Shown here: positions 2,758 through 37,407 of the stretch, piece after piece | How positions within the stretch are numbered: the stretch's first letter is position 1 | Layout of the letters: each line of letters begins with the position of its first letter | NCBI GenBank assembly: GCA_003511945.1 | Contig: DOJA01000246.1 | Span: 1 to 38,128, forward strand | From: Phycisphaerales bacterium | GTDB lineage: Bacteria; Planctomycetota; Phycisphaerae; Phycisphaerales; UBA1924 | Direction of reading: 5' to 3' | Length of the DNA: 38,128 bases | Notes under the pieces: model-generated | Told to the model about the DNA's origin: nothing | The model's database searches: none | Seen by the model: only the letters and a program-made list of their open reading frames with translations | Program-made: the position numbers and the translations under genes

Positions 2758-3411
2758 ATGATCAACATGCCACGACTCGTTCGCCTCGCTTGCGATGGAC
2801 ACTTTGACGCCATGCTGGGCGAGGTCGTCCGCAACGGGCGCCCGCTGCCCCTTTCCGTGCGTTTGCGGCTGTCGCAGCCCGATTCGCTGGCCCCGGCGGC
2901 CCTGGGCCTCGCGCTTCAGCGGGTGCTCGAGCTGACCTACCGCCCCACCGACACCAGCGTGTCGCTGCTGCGCGAACTGCTGGCCCGCGCGCTCCCCGAC
3001 GGGTCGTTCGGGTCGGTCAGCGCCACCGCCATCGCCCTGGCGGCCCTGCTGGGTTTCGAGCACCAGGTGAACTCGCTGCCGGGGGCGCGGACCGGCGACG
3101 GCTCGCGCTATATCGACCCCGCGCTGCGCGCCACGCTCCAGCGCGCGATCGCTGATGCGCTCGGACGCCTCGGCGCGCAGTGGGCGCTGGGCGAGCGCAC
3201 GGACGGCCACGCGGCGCTGCTGGGCGATGACATCGACACCGCGGTCGTCCTGTGGCAGCTGGCCTTCTGCCCGGCGTTCGGGCGCGTGGTGCCGCTGGGC
3301 GCTCTGTTCGAGTCCGCTGAAGCCAACGGGCTGTTGCACGACCGGCGCACGGCCCCGCTGGTGTCGGGCTCTGCGCTCGCGCTGCGCGTGGCGCCCGAGC
3401 GGGCCGCGTGA
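2758..3411 (+). CDS. Hypothetical protein (217 aa), possibly with alpha/alpha-toroid or prenyltransferase-like repeats.
   Basis: Has its own promoter-like and SD signals and high GC3. Contains DGSFGSVSATAIALAALL and LLGDDIDTAVVLWQL helical-repeat-like motifs. Preferred over the Arg-rich antisense ORF 2680..3450. Confidence 0.6.
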   Translation: MINMPRLVRLACDGHFDAMLGEVVRNGRPLPLSVRLRLSQPDSLAPAALGLALQRVLELTYRPTDTSVSLLRELLARALPDGSFGSVSATAIALAALLGFEHQVNSLPGARTGDGSRYIDPALRATLQRAIADALGRLGAQWALGERTDGHAALLGDDIDTAVVLWQLAFCPAFGRVVPLGALFESAEANGLLHDRRTAPLVSGSALALRVAPERAA

Positions 3412-3589: not shown

Positions 3590-5152
3590 ATGACGCACGA
3601 CTGCTTCGTTCGCCTCGGCCTGAATGAGGACGCCCGCGTCGTCCCGCCATCGCGCCGTCCCGCGGACCCGATCGCCGCGGGGCTCACGATGTCGGAGAAT
3701 CCGGCGACCGGCGCGCCGATCGCGGGCGTCCGCCTGGACGACGGACCGTCCTACGAGCGGGCGGTCGAACGGGCGTGCGCCGTGCAGCGGGCCTGGCGGT
3801 CGTGCCCCGCCCCGCGCCGGGGGGAGATCGTCCGACGGATCGGGCTCGCCTTCCGCGACCATCGGGAGGACCTGGGCGCGCTCGTCTCGCTCGAGATGGG
3901 CAAGATCCTCCCCGAGGGCGTCGGCGAGGTGCAGGAGTGCATCGACATCGCCGACTTCGCGGTCGGGCTCTCGCGCCAGTGCTACGGGCTGACCATGCCC
4001 TCCGAGCGCGCCGATCATCGCATGATGGAGCAGTGGCACCCGCTCGGGACCGTCGGCGTCATCACCGCCTTCAACTTTCCGATCGCCGTCTGGGCCTGGA
4101 ACGCGATGCTCGCCTCCGTGTGCGGCGACGCCGTCCTCTGGAAACCCAGTCTGCTCACCCCTCTCGTCGCCATCGCAACGACGCGGATCGTCCGGCGCGT
4201 GATGCGCGAGCAGGACCTCTTCCGCCCCGACGGGTGCGACCCGCAGGACCTGTTCACGCTCGTCATCGGGACCGACGAACAGGTCGGGCGCCCGATGGTG
4301 GACGATCGACGCCTGCCGCTGATCAGCGCGACCGGATCATGCCGAATGGGTCGGGAAGTGGGCCAGCGCGTGGCGGCCCGTCTGGGGCGGTCGCTCCTGG
4401 AACTCGGTGGGAACAACGCCATCGTGGTCATGCCCGATTGCGACCGCGATCTCGTCGTCCGTGCCGTGCTGTTCGGCGCGGTGGGCACCGCGGGGCAGCG
4501 CTGCACAACGACGCGCCGGCTGATCTGCGTGGGCGGCGTCGAACGCGAACTGCTGCCCCGCCTCGTTGAGGCCTACCGCGCGGTGCGGATCGGAGACCCG
4601 CTCGACCCGGGCGCCCTGATGGGGCCGCTCATCAGCGCCGGGGCGGTGAAGCAGATGCGCAGCGCCCTCGAGCGCGCGGCCGCCCAGGGGTGCGAGGTGC
4701 TGGCGGGGGGTATCCCCGGGATCGACCGCTTCGCTGGGCGAGCGGGGCACTTCGTCGAGCCCACGCTTGTCCGCGTCCCCGCGGGCCAGGTGCCCTCCAT
4801 CACCCGGGAGGAGACCTTTGCCCCAATCCTCTATGTGTTCAGCGCGGGATCGTTCCAGGAGGCGATGGCCCTGCACAACGATGTCCCGCAAGGGCTCTCC
4901 TCGGCGGTCTTCACCGGATCCGTCGGGACCGCCGAGCGGTTCCTCTCCCCCGAGGGGTCCGACTGCGGGATTGCGAATGTCAATCTGGGCACCTCCGGGG
5001 CCGAAATCGGGGGGGCCTTCGGGGGTGAGAAGGAGACGGGCGGGGGTCGGGAATCGGGATCCGACTCCTGGAAGGCCTACATGCGCCGCCAGACCTGCAC
5101 GATCAACTACGGCACGGAACTCCCACTGGCCCAGGGGATTACATTCCAATAA
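3590..5152 (+). CDS. ALDH7 (antiquitin)-type aldehyde dehydrogenase, i.e. alpha-aminoadipic semialdehyde / piperideine-6-carboxylate dehydrogenase.
   Basis: Near-colinear with my recollection of ALDH7A1. Shared motifs are SLEMGKILPEGVGEVQE, DFAVGLSR, EQWHPLGTVGVITAFNFPIAVW, LELGGNNA, VGTAGQRCTT, ETFAPILYVF, GSDCGIANVN, GAEIGGAFGGEKETGGGRESGSDSWKAYMRR and the C-terminal LPLAQGITFQ. Confidence 0.92.
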   Translation: MTHDCFVRLGLNEDARVVPPSRRPADPIAAGLTMSENPATGAPIAGVRLDDGPSYERAVERACAVQRAWRSCPAPRRGEIVRRIGLAFRDHREDLGALVSLEMGKILPEGVGEVQECIDIADFAVGLSRQCYGLTMPSERADHRMMEQWHPLGTVGVITAFNFPIAVWAWNAMLASVCGDAVLWKPSLLTPLVAIATTRIVRRVMREQDLFRPDGCDPQDLFTLVIGTDEQVGRPMVDDRRLPLISATGSCRMGREVGQRVAARLGRSLLELGGNNAIVVMPDCDRDLVVRAVLFGAVGTAGQRCTTTRRLICVGGVERELLPRLVEAYRAVRIGDPLDPGALMGPLISAGAVKQMRSALERAAAQGCEVLAGGIPGIDRFAGRAGHFVEPTLVRVPAGQVPSITREETFAPILYVFSAGSFQEAMALHNDVPQGLSSAVFTGSVGTAERFLSPEGSDCGIANVNLGTSGAEIGGAFGGEKETGGGRESGSDSWKAYMRRQTCTINYGTELPLAQGITFQ

Positions 5153-5394
5153 CACCCGGCGAGAAAGTCCATGGAATAGCGGAATACCGAAGGGGTCAAC
5201 CGGGTTCGCGCGTGGGCGGTATTCCTGTCATTCCAGCGTCCGGCACTTGAGTCCGGTCCGGATCGGGCAAGAATGGGTATCACTCCCGAGGGCGCGGGCT
5301 CCTGGGATTATCGAAGTCGATCGGCGGCTCCGGCCTGTGGGCCGAGTTCAAGAGCCATCACACTCTTTCAGCGTCTGTTTGAGGAGAAGGCATC

Positions 5395-6429
5395 ATGCGT
5401 CAGAAACTCGGTTCCACTCTCGTGTCGATGGTCGTCGCGATCGCGGGCGTGAGCGCCCTCGGGCTCGGCGGCTACTCGGCCCTCACCGGCACGACCGTCT
5501 GTACCCTGATGGCGTGCGACTCGACCGCCAAGAGCTGTTCTTCTGAGGCGAAGACGGTCGCGGCGAAGAACGCTGAGGGCGAGGCGAAGTCCTGCTGCCC
5601 GCTGGGCAAGGCCGCCCAGGTCACCGCCGCCGCCAACAAGGAGGCCGGTGAGTGCTCCAAGACCTGCTCGGGCGAGGCGAAGGTTGTCGCCGCCGCCGCG
5701 AAGGAGTCGTGCTCCAAGACCTGCGCCGGCGAGGCGAAGGTTGTTGAGGCGTCGGCGAAGGAGTCCTGCTCGAAGTCGTGCAGCGAAGCGGCCGTGAAGA
5801 CCGCCGCCGCGACCGAGGGCCAGTGCCAGAAGGTGTGCGTCGACTCGGCCCGGGCTCAGCTCGTCGCCGCCGAGGCCGAGTTCAACGCCGCCTGCGAGAA
5901 GGGCTGCGACGAGGGCAAGGCCGTCGCGCAGGCCAAGGTGATCCAGGCCCGCTACACCGTGGCCGGCGCCGAGTTCGAGAAGGCCAAGGAGAGCGGGTGC
6001 TGCAAGTCGAAGGCCGCCGCCGAGGCGAAGTTCCTCGAGGCGAAGGTCGCCGCCATGGAGTGCGCCGAGAAGTGCGCCGCGAAGACCGGTTGCGCTGAGA
6101 CCCTGACCTCCGCCAAGAAGCAGGTCGTGGCGGCCCGCCTCGAGCACGCTGAGTTCGCCTACAACGCCGCCATCGAGAGCGGCTGCGCCGAGTCCAAGGC
6201 CAAGACCGAAGCGATGGTGATCGCCGCCCGCGCCGCCGCCAAGGAGGCCGGCCTGGGTTGCTGCGAGGGCTCCGGCAAGCGCGCCGACGGCGGCGAGTGC
6301 TGCGGCAAGTGCACCGGCGCCAAGGTCGAGGGCGCCGCCAACAAGGAAGCCGGCGAGTGCAGCAAGACCTGCACCGAGGGCAAGCAGGCCGAGGCCAAGG
6401 AAGAGCCGAAGCCCGTCGCGTCCCGCTGA
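5395..6429 (+). CDS. Exported cysteine-rich (28 Cys) Ala/Lys/Glu-rich helical repeat protein of unknown function.
   Basis: GAGGAGAAGG lies 5 nt before the ATG. The N-terminal hydrophobic signal is MRQKLGSTLVSMVVAIAGVSALGLGG. There are seven CxxxC motifs (ECSKTC x2, SCSKTC, SCSKSC, QCQKVC, ACEKGC, ECAEKC) and four CC pairs. Codons are GC3-rich and a hairpin terminator follows the stop. Confidence 0.75.
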   Translation: MRQKLGSTLVSMVVAIAGVSALGLGGYSALTGTTVCTLMACDSTAKSCSSEAKTVAAKNAEGEAKSCCPLGKAAQVTAAANKEAGECSKTCSGEAKVVAAAAKESCSKTCAGEAKVVEASAKESCSKSCSEAAVKTAAATEGQCQKVCVDSARAQLVAAEAEFNAACEKGCDEGKAVAQAKVIQARYTVAGAEFEKAKESGCCKSKAAAEAKFLEAKVAAMECAEKCAAKTGCAETLTSAKKQVVAARLEHAEFAYNAAIESGCAESKAKTEAMVIAARAAAKEAGLGCCEGSGKRADGGECCGKCTGAKVEGAANKEAGECSKTCTEGKQAEAKEEPKPVASR

Positions 6430-6463
6430 GCGACTCTGATCCATTCCCGAGTCTGAACAAGCG

Positions 6464-6500
6464 GCACCCCGCGGCACTCCCGCGGGGTGCTGTGCTTTCT
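6464..6500 (+). terminator. Hairpin terminator after the Cys-rich gene.
   Basis: gcaccccgcgg (6464-6474), loop cactc, ccgcggggtgc (6480-6490), then tgtgctttct. Confidence 0.6.
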
Positions 6501-6546
6501 GGCGACCCCCGCGCGGGCATCCACACTGACAAGGGCTGCAGCCACG

Positions 6547-6732: not shown

Positions 6733-7527
6733 TCAGAGTTCGGCGACGATGTAGACGATCCACGCGAAGTCGGCGTCGCCGTGGTCGCGGGGCTGGAAGT
6801 CGCCGTCGCCTTCGCCGGTCTCCTCGTCGGTGCCTTCCCAATAGACGGTGGAGCGCGCGAAGCCGGCTTCCGCCAGCAGTTCGCGCAGTTCGGGCAGGGT
6901 CCACAGGCGCCAGTGGTAGGTGAAGGCGTCGCGGATCTTCGAGCCATCGGGGAAGTGGAAGTGGATCTTGCACACCGCGCTCCCGGTGATGGGGTCGTAG
7001 GAGTGCTGGTCCCAGACATAGGTGAATCGCCCGTTGTTGATGGGGCGCTTCTCCTGCATTTCCTTGAAGGCGTCCGACCCGCCGTAGGCGTCGAGGAAGA
7101 AGAGCCCGCCCGGAGCGAGGGACTCCCGCACATGCTCGAAGTAGCGGCGCATGGTGGCGCGGTCGGTGAAGCAGTAGTAGGAGAAGTTCATCGCCAGCAC
7201 CGCGTCGACGGGCTCGCAGCGGACGGAGAGGACATTGTCGCGCAGCAGCGTGACCCGCCGGCGCGCCTCGGGCCTCAGCTTGGCGAGGTTGTGGGCGCGC
7301 CCCCAGTCGAGCGTGGGCTGGTCGAGGTCGACCCCGATGGCGCGGTTCGTGGCCCGGCGACGCACGAACTCGCAGGCGGAGTTGGCCGTGCCGCAGAAGT
7401 CCTCGCGGATGACCGAGGGGGATCGGCCGCGCAGGGAGTTGTAGGTGTCGCTGATGAAATCAATCTCCGCGTCCACCGCCTGGACGGACTCCTGGTACAG
7501 CACATGGCGGTCGGCCCGGGCGGCCAT
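6733..7527 (-). CDS. Class I SAM-dependent methyltransferase, substrate unknown.
   Basis: Lies within ORF 6733..7716. The start MAARADRHVLYQESVQ fits the usual short N-terminus of this family as I recall it. Motif I is REDFCGTANSA...GVDLD. Also contains LAMNFSYYCF and LAPGGLFFLD. The start is uncertain because no clear SD is present. Confidence 0.8.
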   Translation of the reverse strand: MAARADRHVLYQESVQAVDAEIDFISDTYNSLRGRSPSVIREDFCGTANSACEFVRRRATNRAIGVDLDQPTLDWGRAHNLAKLRPEARRRVTLLRDNVLSVRCEPVDAVLAMNFSYYCFTDRATMRRYFEHVRESLAPGGLFFLDAYGGSDAFKEMQEKRPINNGRFTYVWDQHSYDPITGSAVCKIHFHFPDGSKIRDAFTYHWRLWTLPELRELLAEAGFARSTVYWEGTDEETGEGDGDFQPRDHGDADFAWIVYIVAEL

Positions 7528-7711
7528 CGGGATGGCGCTGATGTGCCCGTTGGCGGGCTTCGTCGGTGCGCGCCCCGCGCGCCCGCTTCTTGAAGCGCCC
7601 CCCCGCGTCTTCCTTGACGATGACTCCACGGCGTTCTCCGATCGGAACTGAACCCGGATGCGCAGGACCATTTCCCCGTCGCGCGGGAGGGAGTGTATCG
7701 AATCACGGGGG

Positions 7712-7717
7712 TACACT
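7712..7717 (+). promoter_or_regulatory. -10-like hexamer TACACT, 7 nt upstream of ATG 7725 (leaderless candidate).
   Basis: The sequence reads tacact gcgcggg ATG, with no SD. Confidence 0.35.
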
Positions 7718-7724
7718 GCGCGGG

Positions 7725-8522
7725 ATGGCGCCCGATCTCGAGTGTGTCGGCCTGCGGTGGCGCGTCGAGGCGTGCGACTGGCTCGTGGGCGCGCGCACGC
7801 TGGCGCCCGGGTCGATTGACCTGCTCTACGCCGACCCGCCCTTCAACACGGGCAAGAGGCGGTCGGGCGCGTCGGGTTCGTTCGACGATTCGTGGCGCGA
7901 CGCGGGCGCGTACCTCGCGTGGCTCGAGGAGCGCCTCCGCGCGACGCTCCCCGCGCTGAAGGCGACCGGCTCCGTGCTCATCCACTGCGACTGGCGGACG
8001 AGCCACCACACCCGACTGCTCCTGGACCGCCTGCTCGGGCCGGACCGGTTCGTGAACCACCTGGTGTGGCGCTACGGGCTGGGGGGCTCGTCGGCGCGGC
8101 GCTTCGCGCGGAAGCACGACGACATCCTCTTCTACGCGATCGACCCGGAGCGGTACTGGTTCGAGCCGCCCCGCGTGGCGTCGACCAGCCGACGGATGGG
8201 CGGCGCGACCAAGAAGGCGACGGATGTGCTGGACATCCCCGCGGACGAGGTGCTGGATGTCCCCTCGATCAACAACATGGCCCGCGAGCGCACCGGGTGG
8301 CCCACGCAGAAGCCGCTGGCTCTCCTGCGGCTTCTGGTGGGCGCGTGCTGCCCGCCCGCGGGCACAGTGCTCGACCCCTGCTGCGGCTCAGGAACCACGC
8401 TGGTCGCGGCTCGCGATCTGGGACGGTCCGGGGTGGGGTTCGACCTGGACCACCGGGCGACGGAACTCGCGCGGACGCGGGTGGAGCACTTCGTCTGCAC
8501 GCGTGGCGTGCAGACGAGTTGA
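7725..8522 (+). CDS. Beta-class DNA amino-methyltransferase, probably N6-adenine; orphan.
   Basis: Lies within ORF 7566..8522. Motif IV DPPFNTG lies near the N-terminus. Motif I VLDPCCGSGTT lies near the C-terminus, giving the beta permutation. Also contains WPTQKPLALLRLLV. No endonuclease-like ORF is adjacent. Confidence 0.88.
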   Translation: MAPDLECVGLRWRVEACDWLVGARTLAPGSIDLLYADPPFNTGKRRSGASGSFDDSWRDAGAYLAWLEERLRATLPALKATGSVLIHCDWRTSHHTRLLLDRLLGPDRFVNHLVWRYGLGGSSARRFARKHDDILFYAIDPERYWFEPPRVASTSRRMGGATKKATDVLDIPADEVLDVPSINNMARERTGWPTQKPLALLRLLVGACCPPAGTVLDPCCGSGTTLVAARDLGRSGVGFDLDHRATELARTRVEHFVCTRGVQTS

Positions 8523-8681: not shown

Positions 8682-9293
8682 TCACTCCACCCGGGTGAGC
8701 TCGACCTTGACGACCTCCGCCATCGTTCCCGCGCCCTGATCGAACAGGATGCGCCACACCAGGTGATCGTTGTCGGGCTGCGCGTAGTGGAACTCGTACT
8801 TCTCGGTGTGGTTGTGCCTGGGGTCGTGAGTGGTGCCGGAAAGAACCAGGGTTCCGTCGGGCCGCGCGGGTCCCTGCCCCGTGACATAGTAAGTGCCCAC
8901 GGTGTCGTACCCGACGACCGTGAACAGGTCGCTGCGTCGGTCGAACCCCAGGATGGTGAGCCCCTCGAACGGCTGTCCCATCAAGTGGCCGGCGTTGCGG
9001 ATCTCAAGGAACCGCCCGCCGAGGATCATGCGGGTTGTGGAGGTCCCCTCCGAAACATCGGGCGGTTGACCGGGCATCATCGACACCGTGACCCGGGACT
9101 TCCACTCACCCGCCATGCGTTCCAGCACCTTGTGCTCGGGGCCGGGCTGGGCGAGGGCCATCATCTGTTCTGCAATCTTGGCCACTTCTTCGGGGGTCAT
9201 CTTCTTCTCCGGCGGGGTCGAGCGCGCCAGGGCGAGCCCGGCGGCGCAAGCGAGGGCGGCGACACTCAGGACAGCAACACGGGTGGACTTCAC
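8682..9293 (-). CDS. DUF1579-family secreted protein.
   Basis: GTG start (complement of 9291-9293) after AAGGAGAAG, overlapping the upstream stop as GTGA. The signal is VKSTRVAVLSVAALACAAGLALA. Contains LERMAGEWKS...MILGGRFLE...GFD..., typical of DUF1579. Confidence 0.85.
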   Translation of the reverse strand: MKSTRVAVLSVAALACAAGLALARSTPPEKKMTPEEVAKIAEQMMALAQPGPEHKVLERMAGEWKSRVTVSMMPGQPPDVSEGTSTTRMILGGRFLEIRNAGHLMGQPFEGLTILGFDRRSDLFTVVGYDTVGTYYVTGQGPARPDGTLVLSGTTHDPRHNHTEKYEFHYAQPDNDHLVWRILFDQGAGTMAEVVKVELTRVE

Positions 9294-9826
9294 GGGGCTT
9301 CTCCTTGCTCTCGGAGCTCGCCCGGGACCACCCCGGGGTGAGCCATTGGTCGATCGTCGGATCGGTCGCTCACTTCTGCGGACGCTTCGGCGCCGGCGAG
9401 GAGCGTCGGGAGCGTGCGCGCCAGCATGCCCCGCCACCCCCCGCGCAGCATCGACGCAAGCCGTTCGCCGCCGGGTCCATCAAAGCGCGTGTGCTCGAGC
9501 ACGAGGAGCGTTCCGGCTCGCTCGGGCGCGAGCGTCCACTCGACCCGGGTTGGGGCGGGGAATCGAGTCCACGACCACGAGTCCTTCCACGACCACACCA
9601 TGCGACGCGGGGCTTCGATGTCGAGCACCTTGCACTCGACCACGCCGCCCCAGTCGGTCATGTCGGGCGGGACTTCGCACCAGAACCGGAAGGGGCGCCC
9701 GAGGATCGGCTGGAAGTCGGTGGACATCTCGATCCAGCGCTCGATGAGCGCCGGGTCCGTGAGCGCGCGCCACACGCGATCGACCGAGTGGGGGTACGAG
9801 GCCTCCAGCCGCACGCGGGCGTTCAC
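9290..9826 (-). CDS. SRPBCC / AHSA1 (Aha1-like) domain protein.
   Basis: Begins (M)NARVRLEASYPHSVDRVWRALTDPALIERW, an AHSA1-type SRPBCC N-terminus. The GTG start overlaps the arsR stop as GTGA. Confidence 0.85.
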   Translation of the reverse strand: MNARVRLEASYPHSVDRVWRALTDPALIERWIEMSTDFQPILGRPFRFWCEVPPDMTDWGGVVECKVLDIEAPRRMVWSWKDSWSWTRFPAPTRVEWTLAPERAGTLLVLEHTRFDGPGGERLASMLRGGWRGMLARTLPTLLAGAEASAEVSDRSDDRPMAHPGVVPGELREQGEAP

Positions 9827-10161
9827 GGGGCGCCCTCCGCCTCCTCCAGGACGCGTCCGAGGGCGTCCAGCCGCGAGGTCCAGAACCGCTCGTACCGCGC
9901 GGCCCAGTCGCGGACCTCGCGCAGGCGATGTCCGATCAGCCGGTAGTGGCGGTGACGCCCGCGCTGATCGGCGGCGACGAGCCCAGCGTCGCGCAGGATC
10001 TTCAGATGCTGCGACAGCGCGGGCTGGGACATGTCGAACTGTGGGAGCAGTTCGTTGACCGTCTGGGGACCCTGCGCCAGCAGGTCGATCACCCGCCGTC
10101 GCGCCGGGGCGGCGAGGGCGTGGAACAGGTCGGGCGTCGCGGCGGGAGCGTCCATCGCCAT
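9823..10161 (-). CDS. ArsR/SmtB-family winged-helix transcriptional regulator.
   Basis: FHALAAPARRRVIDLLAQGPQTVNELLPQFDMSQPALSQHLKILRDAGLV is the classic ArsR HTH. Confidence 0.9.
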   Translation of the reverse strand: MAMDAPAATPDLFHALAAPARRRVIDLLAQGPQTVNELLPQFDMSQPALSQHLKILRDAGLVAADQRGRHRHYRLIGHRLREVRDWAARYERFWTSRLDALGRVLEEAEGAP

Positions 10162-10189
10162 ATTGTATAAGCGGCTACTTATTCGTCAA
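10162..10189 (-). promoter_or_regulatory. Promoter plus a candidate operator for the arsR operon.
   Basis: The minus strand reads TTGACG (10184-10189), a 16-nt spacer, then TACAAT (10162-10167) abutting the ATG. The inverted repeat ATAAG-N6-CTTAT (10167-10182) overlaps the spacer. A second in-frame ATG lies 6 nt after the -10. Confidence 0.45.
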
Positions 10190-10200
10190 GCGGAGAGACG

Positions 10201-10232
10201 AAAAAGCCCACGGATCCGGGACCCGCGGGCTT
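10201..10232 (-). terminator. Rho-independent terminator after the second DUF1579 gene.
   Basis: The minus strand reads aagcccgcgg gtcccggat ccgtgggctt followed by TTT (an uninterrupted T5 counting the stem-terminal tt). Confidence 0.7.
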
Positions 10233-10256
10233 GAAGAATGAGCGGGATGATGAGCC

Positions 10257-10314
10257 CCGGGCAGAATGACTCGGGGAGGGCCGGGAGAGACGGGCGGGCC
10301 GCCCGTCCCACCTG
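10257..10314 (-). repeat. Repeat family B copy (GACGGGCGGCCCGCCCGTC palindrome plus a conserved 3-prime flank).
   Basis: The minus strand reads caggtgggacgggcggcccgcccgtctctcccggccctccccgagtcattctgc. By eye it is about 85-90 percent identical to 33216-33267. Confidence 0.75.
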
Positions 10315-10368
10315 CCCGGGAGGAGGGTCCTTCCGGGAGGGGCATTCGGTGGCGTTGGGCGCGCCCGA

Positions 10369-11010
10369 TCACTTGCGGGTGTAGGCGATCTCCATGTGCT
10401 TGAACATCTTGCCGTCGGGGCCGGGCATCCACATCTCCATGGAGCGGGTCTTGGCGTCGATGACCCGGGTGATGGACTTCACATCGACCTCCGAGCCGAC
10501 CATCGGGTTGAAGGTGCGCCCGGCGGTGGTGATCGACTTCCCGTCGGGCGTGCCGGTCCCCCACTGCTCCATGAGGCCGGTGCCGAAGTTGTCGAACCAA
10601 AGAGAGAAGAACTGCTGCTTCTGGTTGTCGAAGCCCATGATGGCCATGCCCTCGAACTCCATGATCTGGCCACCCATGTCCCACGAGCCGTTGACCTTCT
10701 CGACGAGGTAGCGCCCGCCCATGATCAGTTTGGAGCTGGCGGTCGCCTTGGACTCCTCGACGGGGGCATCGGGGGCCATCCACGATTTCACCACCAGGTT
10801 CCAATCACCCGCCCACTGCTCGAGGTGCTTGTGGGCCGCTCCGGGGGTGGCGAGCTTCATCATCGCCTCCATCATGGCGGCCTCGTCCGGCGCCCCGCCC
10901 TTGGGGGCCTCCTTCTTCTCCGGTCCGGCGCCGATGGCGAGCGCCCCGACCAGCGCGCCCAGCGCGAGACATCCGACGCCGAACGCGATGCGGTTGATCT
11001 TCTGACTCAT
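10369..11010 (-). CDS. DUF1579-family secreted protein (paralog).
   Basis: Lies within ORF 10369..11280. ATG 11010 follows AAGGAG. The signal is MSQKINRIAFGVGCLALGALVGALAIGA. Contains LEQWAGDWN...LIMGGRYLVE...MGFDN. Confidence 0.85.
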   Translation of the reverse strand: MSQKINRIAFGVGCLALGALVGALAIGAGPEKKEAPKGGAPDEAAMMEAMMKLATPGAAHKHLEQWAGDWNLVVKSWMAPDAPVEESKATASSKLIMGGRYLVEKVNGSWDMGGQIMEFEGMAIMGFDNQKQQFFSLWFDNFGTGLMEQWGTGTPDGKSITTAGRTFNPMVGSEVDVKSITRVIDAKTRSMEMWMPGPDGKMFKHMEIAYTRK

Positions 11011-11159
11011 GGGTCTTGGCTCCTTGCACAAAGCGTGTTCTTGGGTCCGGCGACGGGGGACTTCGCCGGGCCGTCCGGTCCGAGGGCACGGCTCCGCCGA
11101 TCCCTTTGGACGATGATGCACCACCGCCGCGCGGTCCGTCGGCGGCGAACGATCCCAAA

Positions 11160-11188
11160 CAAATACCACACACCAATGCCTATGTCCA
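11160..11188 (-). promoter_or_regulatory. Weak promoter candidate for the DUF1579 paralog.
   Basis: The minus strand reads TGGACA, 17 nt, then TATTTG, in a low-GC pocket about 150 nt upstream of the ATG. Confidence 0.25.
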
Positions 11189-11293
11189 GTAAGAACAGGC
11201 GCTGCGCTGCGCGACTGATCCGAGTTGGGAAACTGCCCCACGCTCGGTGCCGGGCTGAACCGCTCACGGAATGAACCCATGAGGGTCGGGTCA

Positions 11294-15600: not shown

Positions 15601-15603
15601 TGA

Positions 15604-15709
15604 GTCGGCGATGACCTACTTTCCCGCAAGGCAGTATCATCGGCGGCCTGGGCTTAACTGCTGTGTTCGGGATGGGAACAGGTGTTGCCCCAGACCTATG
15701 GTCACCGAC
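15604..15709 (-). rRNA. rrf: 5S rRNA.
   Basis: The minus strand reads GTCGGTGACCATAGG...CCCATCCCGAACACAGCAGTTAAGCC...GCCGATGATACTG...GGGAAAGTAGGTCATCGCCGAC. It aligns by eye to E. coli 5S, including the CCGAAC and GCCGATGGTA regions, and the termini pair as helix I. Ends are accurate to about +/-5 nt. Confidence 0.85.
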
Positions 15710-15971
15710 AAAGCCCGGTCCGTCCGCGAGGACGAACCGGACGAGGAGGGTGGCCTCTTCGTCCGGACAGTTCTGCGATTGCTGATGAAACAGGGTTGGA
15801 TGGACGGAGTTGATGATGTTGATGAGTCGTACGCGCCCGTGCGGGGTTGAAGCCGCCCGGGCCGTCAATGTGAAGCGTGCGTTGATGAATGATCGTCGTA
15901 AGAACATGAGCTTGCACTCGCTCCGTGGCCCGCCGGGCGTCGTGCTGGAACACGACGGCGGAGGGTTGGAG

Positions 15972-18731
<2,760 letters not shown>

Positions 18732-37247: not shown

Positions 37248-37307
37248 GGGCCGGTTCCTGTCTGCCGCGGGGACGGGCGTCCCCTGCGGGGGTGGGTTGA
37301 TGTTCAA

Positions 37308-37380
37308 CACGCCGGGAGGGAATCGAACCCGCAACCTGCGGATTTGGAATCCGCTGCTCTACCAGTTGAGCTACCGGCGT
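37308..37380 (-). tRNA. tRNA-Trp (anticodon CCA); CCA end not encoded.
   Basis: The minus strand folds as ACGCCGG TA GCTC AACTGGT AGAGC A GCGGA TTCCAAA TCCGC AGGTT GCGGG TTCGATT CCCTC CCGGCGT G. The cloverleaf has one C-U mismatch in the T stem. The tuf/rpmG-trnW-secE context is classical. Confidence 0.9.
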
Positions 37381-37407
37381 AGAAGATTCGCGGCGTTGCC
37401 GCGGCTT

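Follow-up and report, generated by a model that had tools for sequence, protein, structure and literature searches.

The window analysed here is positions 1 to 38,128 of contig DOJA01000246.1 (assembly GCA_003511945.1), a stretch from a Phycisphaerales bacterium, and the gene under study lies at 5395..6429 on the + strand (stop codon included), where it encodes a 344-aa cysteine-pair repeat protein. The gene is genuine, and it belongs to a previously undescribed family restricted to one lineage, the Phycisphaerae. Its product may be an anchored, periplasmic, metallothionein-like protein that binds metals through cysteine thiolates, a reading to which we give a probability of roughly 45%. More tentative is the wider proposal that the family is the founding case of a tethered periplasmic 'thiolate brush', a core gene of the Phycisphaerae with a capacity tuned by its repeats, unrelated to metallothioneins and to the copper-storage proteins Csp1 and Csp3, and ending in a new five-Cys module that is reused by Planctomycetia.

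The gene and its family

The GC content at codon positions 1, 2 and 3 is 0.60, 0.56 and 0.93 in the + strand open reading frame (ORF) and 0.91, 0.57 and 0.60 in the 369-aa ORF that overlaps it on the - strand (5368..6477). Because GC at the third position (GC3) is 0.93 in the + frame against 0.60 in the antisense frame, the latter is a non-coding shadow; its translation is a low-complexity string rich in Leu, Gly, Ala and Arg. The preliminary description, which was made from the sequence alone, had raised the concern that the antisense ORF might be the expressed one, and GC3 answers this for the + strand. A Shine-Dalgarno-like GAGGAG can be read directly at 5381..5386 (+), 8 nt before the ATG. 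A likely intrinsic terminator, a G+C-rich hairpin with a perfect 14-bp stem and UUUCU behind it, is located at 6461..6493 (+) and starts 32 nt past the stop codon; the RNA fold of 6430-6520 has an energy of -43.3 kcal/mol (z = -3.05). A scan for consensus promoters and terminators returned no match, the hairpin being missed there because of its short U-tract.

The view that the + ORF is a chance frame in high-GC DNA, or that the antisense ORF at 5368-6477 is the expressed one, can for practical purposes be set aside. The antisense ORF is indeed long, gene callers picked such antisense ORFs in six contigs that carry a large relative of the gene (L015-L020), and the exact 344-aa protein has no entry in a collection of 15 billion proteins (NCBI/ENA/Logan), whereas both upstream neighbours on the same ~38-kb contig do occur there. 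However, the overlapping antisense ORFs that were looked up are missing from the same collection, as is a shorter-start variant of the protein. In addition to GC3 and the presence of both a Shine-Dalgarno sequence and a terminator hairpin, full-length homologs at 25-60% identity keep the peptide of the + frame together with its Cys residues and the motifs at both ends, and two repeat copies within the gene diverge by synonymous changes only in the + frame.

The protein has no Pfam and no NCBIfam match at E<=10, in agreement with the preliminary description, which had recognized no named family. A word-indexed search of 5.8 billion proteins delivered three relatives and a profile search nine, whereas searching 1.84 billion cluster representatives exhaustively with HMMER yielded 63 at E<=1e-3, and 27 of these reach E<=1e-10; a metagenome scan added just three more loci. 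A full-length homolog, P0001, shares about 60-63% identity with the window protein. All full-length members that could be assigned to an organism are from Phycisphaerae or Phycisphaerales metagenome-assembled genomes. Family members contain between 5.5% and 13% Cys and reach a length of ~655 aa. About 55 of 67 members have the conserved anchor '...AIAG.sA.G.gGY..(m)TG.t(l)C....C', the exceptions being mostly fragments (alignments A1, A2 and A6), while the motif GCCxGxGxRADGxxCCGxC is found in about half of the members and a PVASR tail in about a quarter; the window protein has both (residues 288-306 and 339-344). A Pfam scan of the 67 members found only YHS, TRASH and DUF6757 in two proteins, plus sub-threshold matches to SPOR and DUF4097, and PDB sequence profiles gave only a non-significant match to Tim10/DDP with profile A2 and nothing with A8. 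The distant member P0040 carries a non-repetitive globular insert at residues ~215-310 ('...IETGYAIDFPACSDTLVKVAEMVAMGRDCCEFLNYQIV..GGPVQLVMTGDAGAKAFL...'), and this protein has no Pfam, NCBIfam or PDB match. In the literature on Cys-rich Phycisphaerae proteins, on Csp in Planctomycetes and on periplasmic or anchored metallothioneins, no description of the present family was found.

It is the cysteine pairs that are under selection, and not the scaffold around them: 27 of 28 are conserved in P0001, where non-Cys identity is 59%, so that a lack of conserved Cys positions, which the preliminary description had named as a way to disprove its claims, is not what the homologs present. The single exception lies in the first inter-helix turn, where C167-x3-C171 of the window protein is replaced by the vicinal pair C170-C171. 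A similar exchange separates lineages, with CxxxC pairs in the window protein, L015, P0023 and P0050 and CC pairs in P0003 and P0006-8. As judged from these alignments, the conserved feature is a thiol pair at a given place and not an i/i+4 spacing. The interchange of CxxxC and CC and the swap at C167 therefore undercut the earlier argument that CxxxC spacing places the thiols on one helix face, an argument that also fits poorly with repeats that are predicted to be disordered.

The six contigs L015-L020 come from related samples and carry the same large family member of ~655 aa (L015:4165-6201), in which a 60-nt unit that encodes CASSCSKGAKTMAAANE(S/T)KG is repeated up to 15.6 times. Their reading frames of 518, 538, 558, 578 and 678 aa differ solely in copy number, in steps of 20 aa; these may be real alleles, collapse during short-read assembly being a possible alternative. 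All six are annotated with antisense ORFs of 274-434 aa and a 66-aa tail (P0010), while the true gene is uncalled. A word search with the C-terminal motif alone had one match, in which the tail of a long family member had been mis-called, and antisense mis-calls of this kind account in part for the apparent rarity of the family in protein databases. They also point to a systematic annotation problem, in that callers may choose the antisense shadow ORF in high-GC repeat genes and the family is thereby under-represented.

Anatomy and predicted structure of the protein

The 344 residues comprise 80 Ala, 40 Lys, 39 Glu, 29 Gly, 28 Cys, 27 Ser, 24 Val and 20 Thr, with three Pro, three Tyr, four Phe, one His and no Trp. 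These counts bear out the composition given in the preliminary description (Ala, Lys, Glu, Gly, Ser, Thr and Cys, with 28 Cys, a single His and few aromatic residues). Cys makes up 8.1% (28/344) as compared to 1.14% across 21 further genes in the window (binomial P of about 1e-15). The seven CxxxC motifs and four CC pairs listed earlier are all present, the CC pairs at residues 67/68, 202/203, 289/290 and 302/303, and an eighth CxxxC overlaps in ECCGKC (C302-x3-C306); there is a single CxxC. When the mature sequence was shuffled 20,000 times, at least eight CxxxC motifs came up in 18 cases, whereas the number of CC pairs, reached in 4,175 of 20,000, is unremarkable alone.

The N-terminus consists of a basic tail, MRQK, and a conserved hydrophobic helix at residues ~8-31 (5395..5487, +), a predicted signal-anchor of N-in/C-out orientation according to hydropathy, AlphaFold (AF2) models and alignments. 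The top 19-residue Kyte-Doolittle window covers residues 8-26 with a mean of 1.9, and no comparable segment follows further on; AF2 places a helix at residues 8-31, and G6, A17, G18, A21, G23 and G26 are invariant among the aligned close homologs. In all members two to three Lys or Arg residues precede the hydrophobic helix and none or one follow it, so by the positive-inside rule the remainder of the chain would lie outside the cytoplasm. The hydrophobic segment reported earlier as an N-terminal export signal is thus present, but its length, its conservation and the absence of an obvious signal-peptidase site speak against cleavage, and it resembles a signal-anchor more closely than a signal peptide that is cleaved off.

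Next to the membrane the alignments define the motif TG-x-T-(L/V)-C36-x4-C41 (5485..5517, +), in which G32, C36 and C41 are invariant or nearly so. C41 follows a lipobox-like (L/V/I/M)-x-(G/A/S), and among relatives Asp is often the next residue after the Cys. Lipidation at C41 is possible. A lipobox reads [LVI][ASTVI][GAS]C and would be expected immediately behind a short hydrophobic region, in about the first 35 residues; L-M-A-C41 and the (V/I/M)-x-(G/A/S)-C of relatives match it loosely, but the Cys lies 10-13 residues past the helix, and many members have Lys or Arg at position 33. The juxtamembrane motif is followed by the motif 'KSCCPLGK' (5587..5610, +) with the vicinal C67-C68, of which C67 is invariant in alignments A2 and A6; 'SCC(P/A)L' is found again in most members.

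Residues 80-148 (5632..5838, +) form ~3.6 units of a 19-aa repeat with one C-x3-C each and are predicted to be unstructured. The repeat register is supported by TRF, which reports a 57-nt period with 2.2 copies and 85% match at 5652-5775. Family-wide, the repeat units are 17-20 residues long, rich in Ala, Lys, Glu, Thr, Ser and Val, and carry one Cys pair each. The peptide ANKEAGECSKTC occurs at the beginning of the repeats (nt 5632-5667, +) and again, in identical form, at residues 315-326 (6337..6372, +). Between the two copies there are four nucleotide differences, every one of them synonymous, as the preliminary description had noticed in outline, and they include a TCC<->AGC switch of a serine codon. 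This switch speaks for selection that has acted on the peptide over a long time and against a recent duplication.

A helical core of five helices of about 20-29 residues covers residues 143-284 (5821..6246, +) in the AF2 models. It is built on a ~31-aa unit beginning with 'G-C-(C/A)-(E/K)-(S/T)' and is common to the window protein, P0001, P0019, P0032, P0042 and P0048; most other members carry a 'P(V/I)x(M/I)PAAFY' segment. The best-conserved element of the alignments is the C-terminal Cys motif G-C-C-E-G-S-G-K-R-A-D-G-G-E-C-C-G-K-C at residues 288-306 (6256..6312, +), with G288, C289, C290, G292, G294, R296, A297, D298, G299 and C302 invariant. The protein ends with the tail ...EEPKPVASR (6400..6426, +), whose '(E/K)PVASR' end is kept at the C-termini of P0001, P0011-13, P0016-18, P0022, P0025, P0030, P0031, P0042 and P0043.

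The same C-terminal motif, in the form GCCxGxGxRADGKPCCGxC, is present in an otherwise unrelated, exported family that is specific to Planctomycetia (L004:9467-10147, L005:4354-4974, L006:64-618, L007:2154-2744 and P0061). Its members consist of a signal peptide, a Pro/Ala linker, a 'WRxWFxGGKDVP...ADGWTADRFVxYFQA' domain and then the motif, which from this distribution behaves as a portable module. No Pfam and no significant PDB match was obtained for this family, profile A3 giving only the Cys/His tail of SlyD at E = 8. One of its loci lies before genes for an MFP and an RND pump, which scores best as a multidrug type and not as CusA/CzcA; another is ~1 kb from modA/modC and a third near a pseudouridine synthase. 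This gene context was dropped as a functional lead, as it is not uniform across the loci.

AF2 was run twice, with four and with 30 aligned sequences, and the results agree. Residues 38-140, which include the CxxxC repeats, have a predicted local distance difference test (pLDDT) score of 23-48 and no secondary structure in either model; low pLDDT is consistent with disorder but is no proof of it. With 30 sequences, helices are modelled at residues 143-169, 172-200, 204-227, 234-262 and 265-284 with pLDDT 73-93, the same core appears with four sequences, and the C-terminal motif is weakly ordered (pLDDT about 50-76). The earlier label of a helical repeat protein therefore holds for residues ~143-284 and does not hold for the 19-aa CxxxC repeats. 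All Cys of the core (C144, C148, C167, C171, C202, C203, C223, C227, C233, C264 and C289/290) are located at the first or last turn of a helix or in an inter-helix turn. Should the helices alternate in direction, the model would give two polar Cys clusters, C144/C148/C202/C203/C264 on one side and C167/C171/C223/C227/C233/C289/C290 on the other. Foldseek searches with both models had no match at E<=0.001, and the matches listed were designed alpha/alpha helical repeats, 14-3-3 and BAR domains, with no Csp among them.

Proposed metal binding and its alternatives

In the proposed mechanism the protein would be a single-pass membrane protein, with the N-terminal helix in the cytoplasmic membrane, the basic tail inside and the remaining chain in the periplasm. 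The exposed chain would be a flexible string rich in Ala, Lys, Glu, Ser and Thr with a thiol pair, CxxxC or CC, about every 17-20 residues, followed by the five-helix module with its two Cys clusters at the poles and by the compact five-Cys motif. Thiolate pairs of adjacent repeats could wrap soft metal ions, most likely Cu(I), with Zn, Cd and Hg as further possibilities. The disordered repeats would fold only on metal binding, capacity would rise with the number of repeats, and the protein would buffer or sequester metal on the outer face of the membrane. From these features we infer free thiols, the identity of the ligand, the topology and the physiological role.

The most specific indications come from genes that occupy the equivalent slot in related loci. 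The window has the order An_peroxidase-[217 aa]-ALDH-gene, where ALDH stands for aldehyde dehydrogenase; L024 reads [214 aa]-P0055-EVE and L025 An_peroxidase-[171 aa]-P0053-EVE, and the small neighbour is homologous among the three. P0055 keeps the family anchor and the Cys repeats and has YHS domains (33.2 bits against a Pfam gathering threshold of 30.3, E = 5e-8) and a TRASH match of 26.9 against a threshold of 27. P0053 contains two C-P-x-S-G...GFC-x2-3-C-x3-F segments with sub-threshold YHS and TRASH matches, and a third member, P0059, has a His-rich HSHGGHSHSHGGHSHSH tract. YHS and TRASH domains bind transition metals via conserved Cys and Asp residues (PMC4626032). Of the metal-binding hypothesis in the preliminary description, the general idea is thus retained, with these slot equivalents (P0055 above the YHS cut-off, P0053 weaker) and the His tract of P0059 as new arguments, while the Csp-type geometry proposed with it is abandoned.

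Metallothioneins fold only upon metal binding (PMC7558416); the Cys-bearing composition, poor in His and aromatic residues, and the predicted disorder of the repeats therefore fit with fold-on-metal proteins. Changes of whole repeat units among near-identical contigs likewise fit a capacity-dependent function over a precise fold. The exposed part has an even number of Cys in 24 members and an odd number in 33 (p = 0.29), and the absence of an even-Cys bias is not as expected were all Cys engaged in intramolecular disulfides; the test is weak, some sequences being possibly truncated and intermolecular disulfides needing no parity, and this limit is the first of several points that weigh against metal binding.

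Among the others, a recognizable metal domain is found in only two of 67 representatives and the His tract in one, and the window protein itself has no match to a metal-binding domain. With 344 aa and 8% Cys it is far from a classical metallothionein, and the disorder predicted by AF2 would be equally expected of a low-complexity structural linker. Periplasmic metal sites are more often made of Met and His, as exported Cys tends to oxidize. The conserved neighbours are housekeeping genes (ALDH, EVE, DnaK, IMPDH), with no metal transporter, metal sensor or resistance gene among them, and a pair of ArsR and AHSA1 genes about 3.4 kb away is not kept in other loci. YHS domains are given as cytosolic (PMC4626032), which is awkward with the predicted location outside the cytoplasm. 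Metal binding is, in sum, predicted from sequence and model.

Compared to metallothioneins (SmtA/BmtA, MymT and the eukaryotic proteins), the window protein is alike in a composition made up mainly of Cys, Lys, Ser, Ala, Gly and Thr, where His and aromatic residues are nearly absent, in its CC and C-x-n-C motifs, in an apo form predicted to be unstructured, and in a likely function of multi-site thiolate binding that scales with Cys number. It differs in the lack of any sequence relation (no Pfam, NCBIfam or PDB match for the window protein, and no metallothionein model in the 67 members), in size (344 aa, with relatives to ~655 aa, versus <10 kDa), in Cys content (8% versus 15-30%) and in being membrane-anchored and predicted to be periplasmic where metallothioneins are cytosolic. 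Tandem repeats of variable copy number, the helical module and the C-terminal Cys motif are further features that set the window family apart.

The window protein resembles the YHS/TRASH domains present in P0055 and P0053 in that C68-P-L-G-K...x18...C87-S-K-T-C91 follows the pattern C-P-x-x-G...C-x3-C with nearly equal spacing. It has, however, no YHS (PF04945) or TRASH match at E<=10, and the intervening stretch is Ala-rich and predicted to be unstructured; the resemblance to TRASH-type segments is a lead that no model detects. Extracytoplasmic binding by Cys is feasible as such, given that the anchored Sco1/SenC, with a CxxxC, and the periplasmic MerP bind Cu or Hg by a Cys pair. These proteins share with the window protein the membrane anchor (Sco) or the periplasmic location (MerP), but theirs are single-site thioredoxin-like or ferredoxin-like folds, whereas the window protein is a multi-site repeat protein with neither. 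On the metal-binding reading, the best supported of those considered although less than even in probability, the window family would be a Cys-rich metal-binding type set apart by its tether, its extracytoplasmic place, its repeats and its novel C-terminal Cys module.

If metal binding is correct, the family would be a Cys-thiolate buffer outside the cytoplasm that is tethered to the membrane and evolved independently of metallothioneins and Csps, in a compartment where metal handling is usually ascribed to Met and His sites. The variation in repeat number would be a natural system for the tuning of metal capacity, and the sequence might be useful in metal capture or bioremediation. With or without metal binding, the analysis defines a portable Cys motif and a lineage-specific family that lacks annotation.

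The most serious rival function, less probable than metal binding, is that of a disulfide-cross-linked structural protein of the envelope or periplasm. It would be an extended tether across the periplasm, anchored in the inner membrane, with ladders of Cys pairs linked between repeats or between molecules, a C-terminal Cys knot and EPVASR end that dock on another envelope component, and a length set by the repeat number. The small-residue pattern A17, G18, A21, G23 and G26 of the transmembrane helix suits helix-helix packing, the middle part is of low complexity, variable in length and predicted to be extended or disordered, and the conserved C-terminal motif and tail look like an interaction module. 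In the Planctomycetia family with a signal peptide, the motif terminates a linker rich in Pro and Ala. The gene is a core gene of the lineage with housekeeping surroundings and does not form part of a resistance island, and the odd Cys counts allow intermolecular bonds.

The regular spacing of the CX3C motifs, 14-15 residues apart, also recalls the small Tim proteins (Tim9/Tim10/DDP), twin-CX3C proteins with inter-helix disulfides, which gave the only, marginal PDB match (E = 0.097). This match is non-significant and lost with the deeper profile A8; the CX3C repeats are not predicted to form a helix-loop-helix, with no helices at residues 80-140, and the Tim proteins belong to an unrelated compartment and unrelated organisms. 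Vicinal CC pairs, poor partners in disulfide ladders on established stereochemical grounds, replace CX3C in many members and are ill-suited to a regular arrangement of this kind. The fusions with YHS/TRASH and the His tract would be left unexplained.

Chlamydiae, which like the planctomycetes belong to the Planctomycetes-Verrucomicrobia-Chlamydiae (PVC) bacteria, possess a cystine-cross-linked outer-membrane complex that is analogous in principle to such a tether. The window protein has in common with the PVC Cys-rich envelope proteins (OmcA/OmcB and the YTV wall proteins) the superphylum, the export, the Cys-richness and the possibility of cross-linking. It has no match at E<=10 in Pfam, which includes models for the chlamydial cysteine-rich outer-membrane protein and the planctomycete YTV proteins. 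With only three Pro it also differs from the Cys/Pro-rich wall proteins that are classical for planctomycetes. Its predicted anchor would place it in the inner rather than the outer membrane, and it carries regular Cys pairs in low-complexity repeats. Were the structural function true, the protein would be a new disulfide-linked envelope component in the Planctomycetota, whose envelope architecture has long been debated.

With distinctly lower probability the protein could act as a membrane-tethered redox buffer or scavenger based on thiols, in which dithiol-disulfide cycling or consumption would counter oxidants and electrophiles, or a carrier of sulfane sulfur or polysulfide. Many Cys are found at helix N-termini directly after Gly ('G-C-C'), a position that lowers the thiol pKa, as known for CxxC oxidoreductases. 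The gene for the animal-haem-peroxidase family protein is syntenic in the window and in L025, and a function set by how many thiols are present would tolerate repeat variation. Neither a thioredoxin-like fold nor a CxxC active-site motif was detected, however, the protein having a single CxxC; partners such as Dsb, CcdA or a reductase are missing from the conserved neighbourhood, L011, L013 and L015 lack the peroxidase, and none of the data is specific to a redox function.

Membership in the Csp1/Csp3 copper-storage family, with a Cys-lined four-helix bundle as the preliminary description had suggested from the CxxxC spacing, is rejected as very improbable. Csps are four-helix bundles, rigid also in the apo form, that hold 13-20 Cu(I) in a Cys-lined core, and Csp1 has a twin-arginine (Tat) signal; structures of both Csp1 and Csp3 are included in the PDB (PMC7558416). 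The window protein resembles Csp1 in being exported and Cys-rich, with helical segments, CxxxC motifs and Cys thiolates outside the cytoplasm. It lacks any Pfam match at E<=10, and the 67 members contain no match to the Csp family model, DUF326. The PDB profiles A2 and A8 return no Csp, and neither do the Foldseek searches. In place of a bundle core lined by Cys, which the preliminary description had proposed to look for in an AlphaFold model, the prediction is an array of five helices, not four, with Cys at the poles, that is at helix ends and turns; most Cys lie in predicted disordered repeats, and the N-terminus MRQKLGST has no Arg pair, which is present in some relatives without being conserved.

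Four further candidates were considered and rejected. A precursor of a ribosomally synthesized and post-translationally modified peptide or a substrate of a radical S-adenosylmethionine (SAM) enzyme would not agree with the transmembrane anchor, and no maturase gene is nearby. An anti-sigma factor is not compatible with a cytoplasmic tail of only about seven residues, a c-type cytochrome lacks support with no CxxCH and one His, and the CxxCxxC...CP pattern of a ferredoxin-like Fe-S protein is absent.

Locus and neighbouring genes

All located family members occupy one syntenic position. The gene is part of a shared order, [~170-215-aa protein]-(usually ALDH)-Cys-rich gene-(usually EVE), that is seen in L011, L013, L015 and L022-L025; the window holds the first three genes of this order. 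The 217-aa syntenic neighbour (2758..3411, +) has no Pfam or NCBIfam match and shares 29-40% identity with its homologs L011:5506-6135, L013:4708-5337, L024:5121-5765 and L025:3720-4235; the signature of this family of ~170-217 aa is 'NGRPLPLS.RLRL...Q(R)PDGSFG'. The ALDH gene (3590..5152, +; Pfam Aldedh, E = 1.8e-115) has L-piperidine-6-carboxylate dehydrogenase as its best match, with 714.9 bits against NF050084, slightly below the cut-off of 730 bits, and an ALDH neighbour is also present in L001, L009, L011, L013, L015, L018, L022 and L023. The An_peroxidase protein of 595 aa is encoded at 774-2561 (+; E = 4.6e-154).

In place of the downstream EVE gene the window has two methyltransferase genes, one SAM-methyltransferase-like (6733-7716, -) and one for an N6/N4 DNA methylase (7566-8522, +). 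The two ORFs converge and, with the first start codon taken for each, share ~150 nt; the pair may be a local insertion or replacement. The neighbourhood is of a housekeeping kind (DnaK, IMPDH, YchF, Leu/Phe-tRNA transferase, ALDH and EVE), and no conserved metal transporter, sensor, Dsb gene or maturase was found as a neighbour in the window and about 12 related loci.

Further downstream, two DUF1579 paralogues (8682-9437 and 10369-11280, within 8682-11280, -) flank an AHSA1/SRPBCC gene and an ArsR-family regulator (9290-10161). A 5S and a complete 23S rRNA gene are located at 15603-15709 (-) and 15971-18729 (-), with a GC content of 0.58-0.60 compared to ~0.70 elsewhere. No 16S rRNA gene lies beside them and protein-coding genes follow directly from ~19.2 kb, which makes this a split rRNA operon. 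A tRNA-Trp (CCA) gene is located at 37307-37381 (-).

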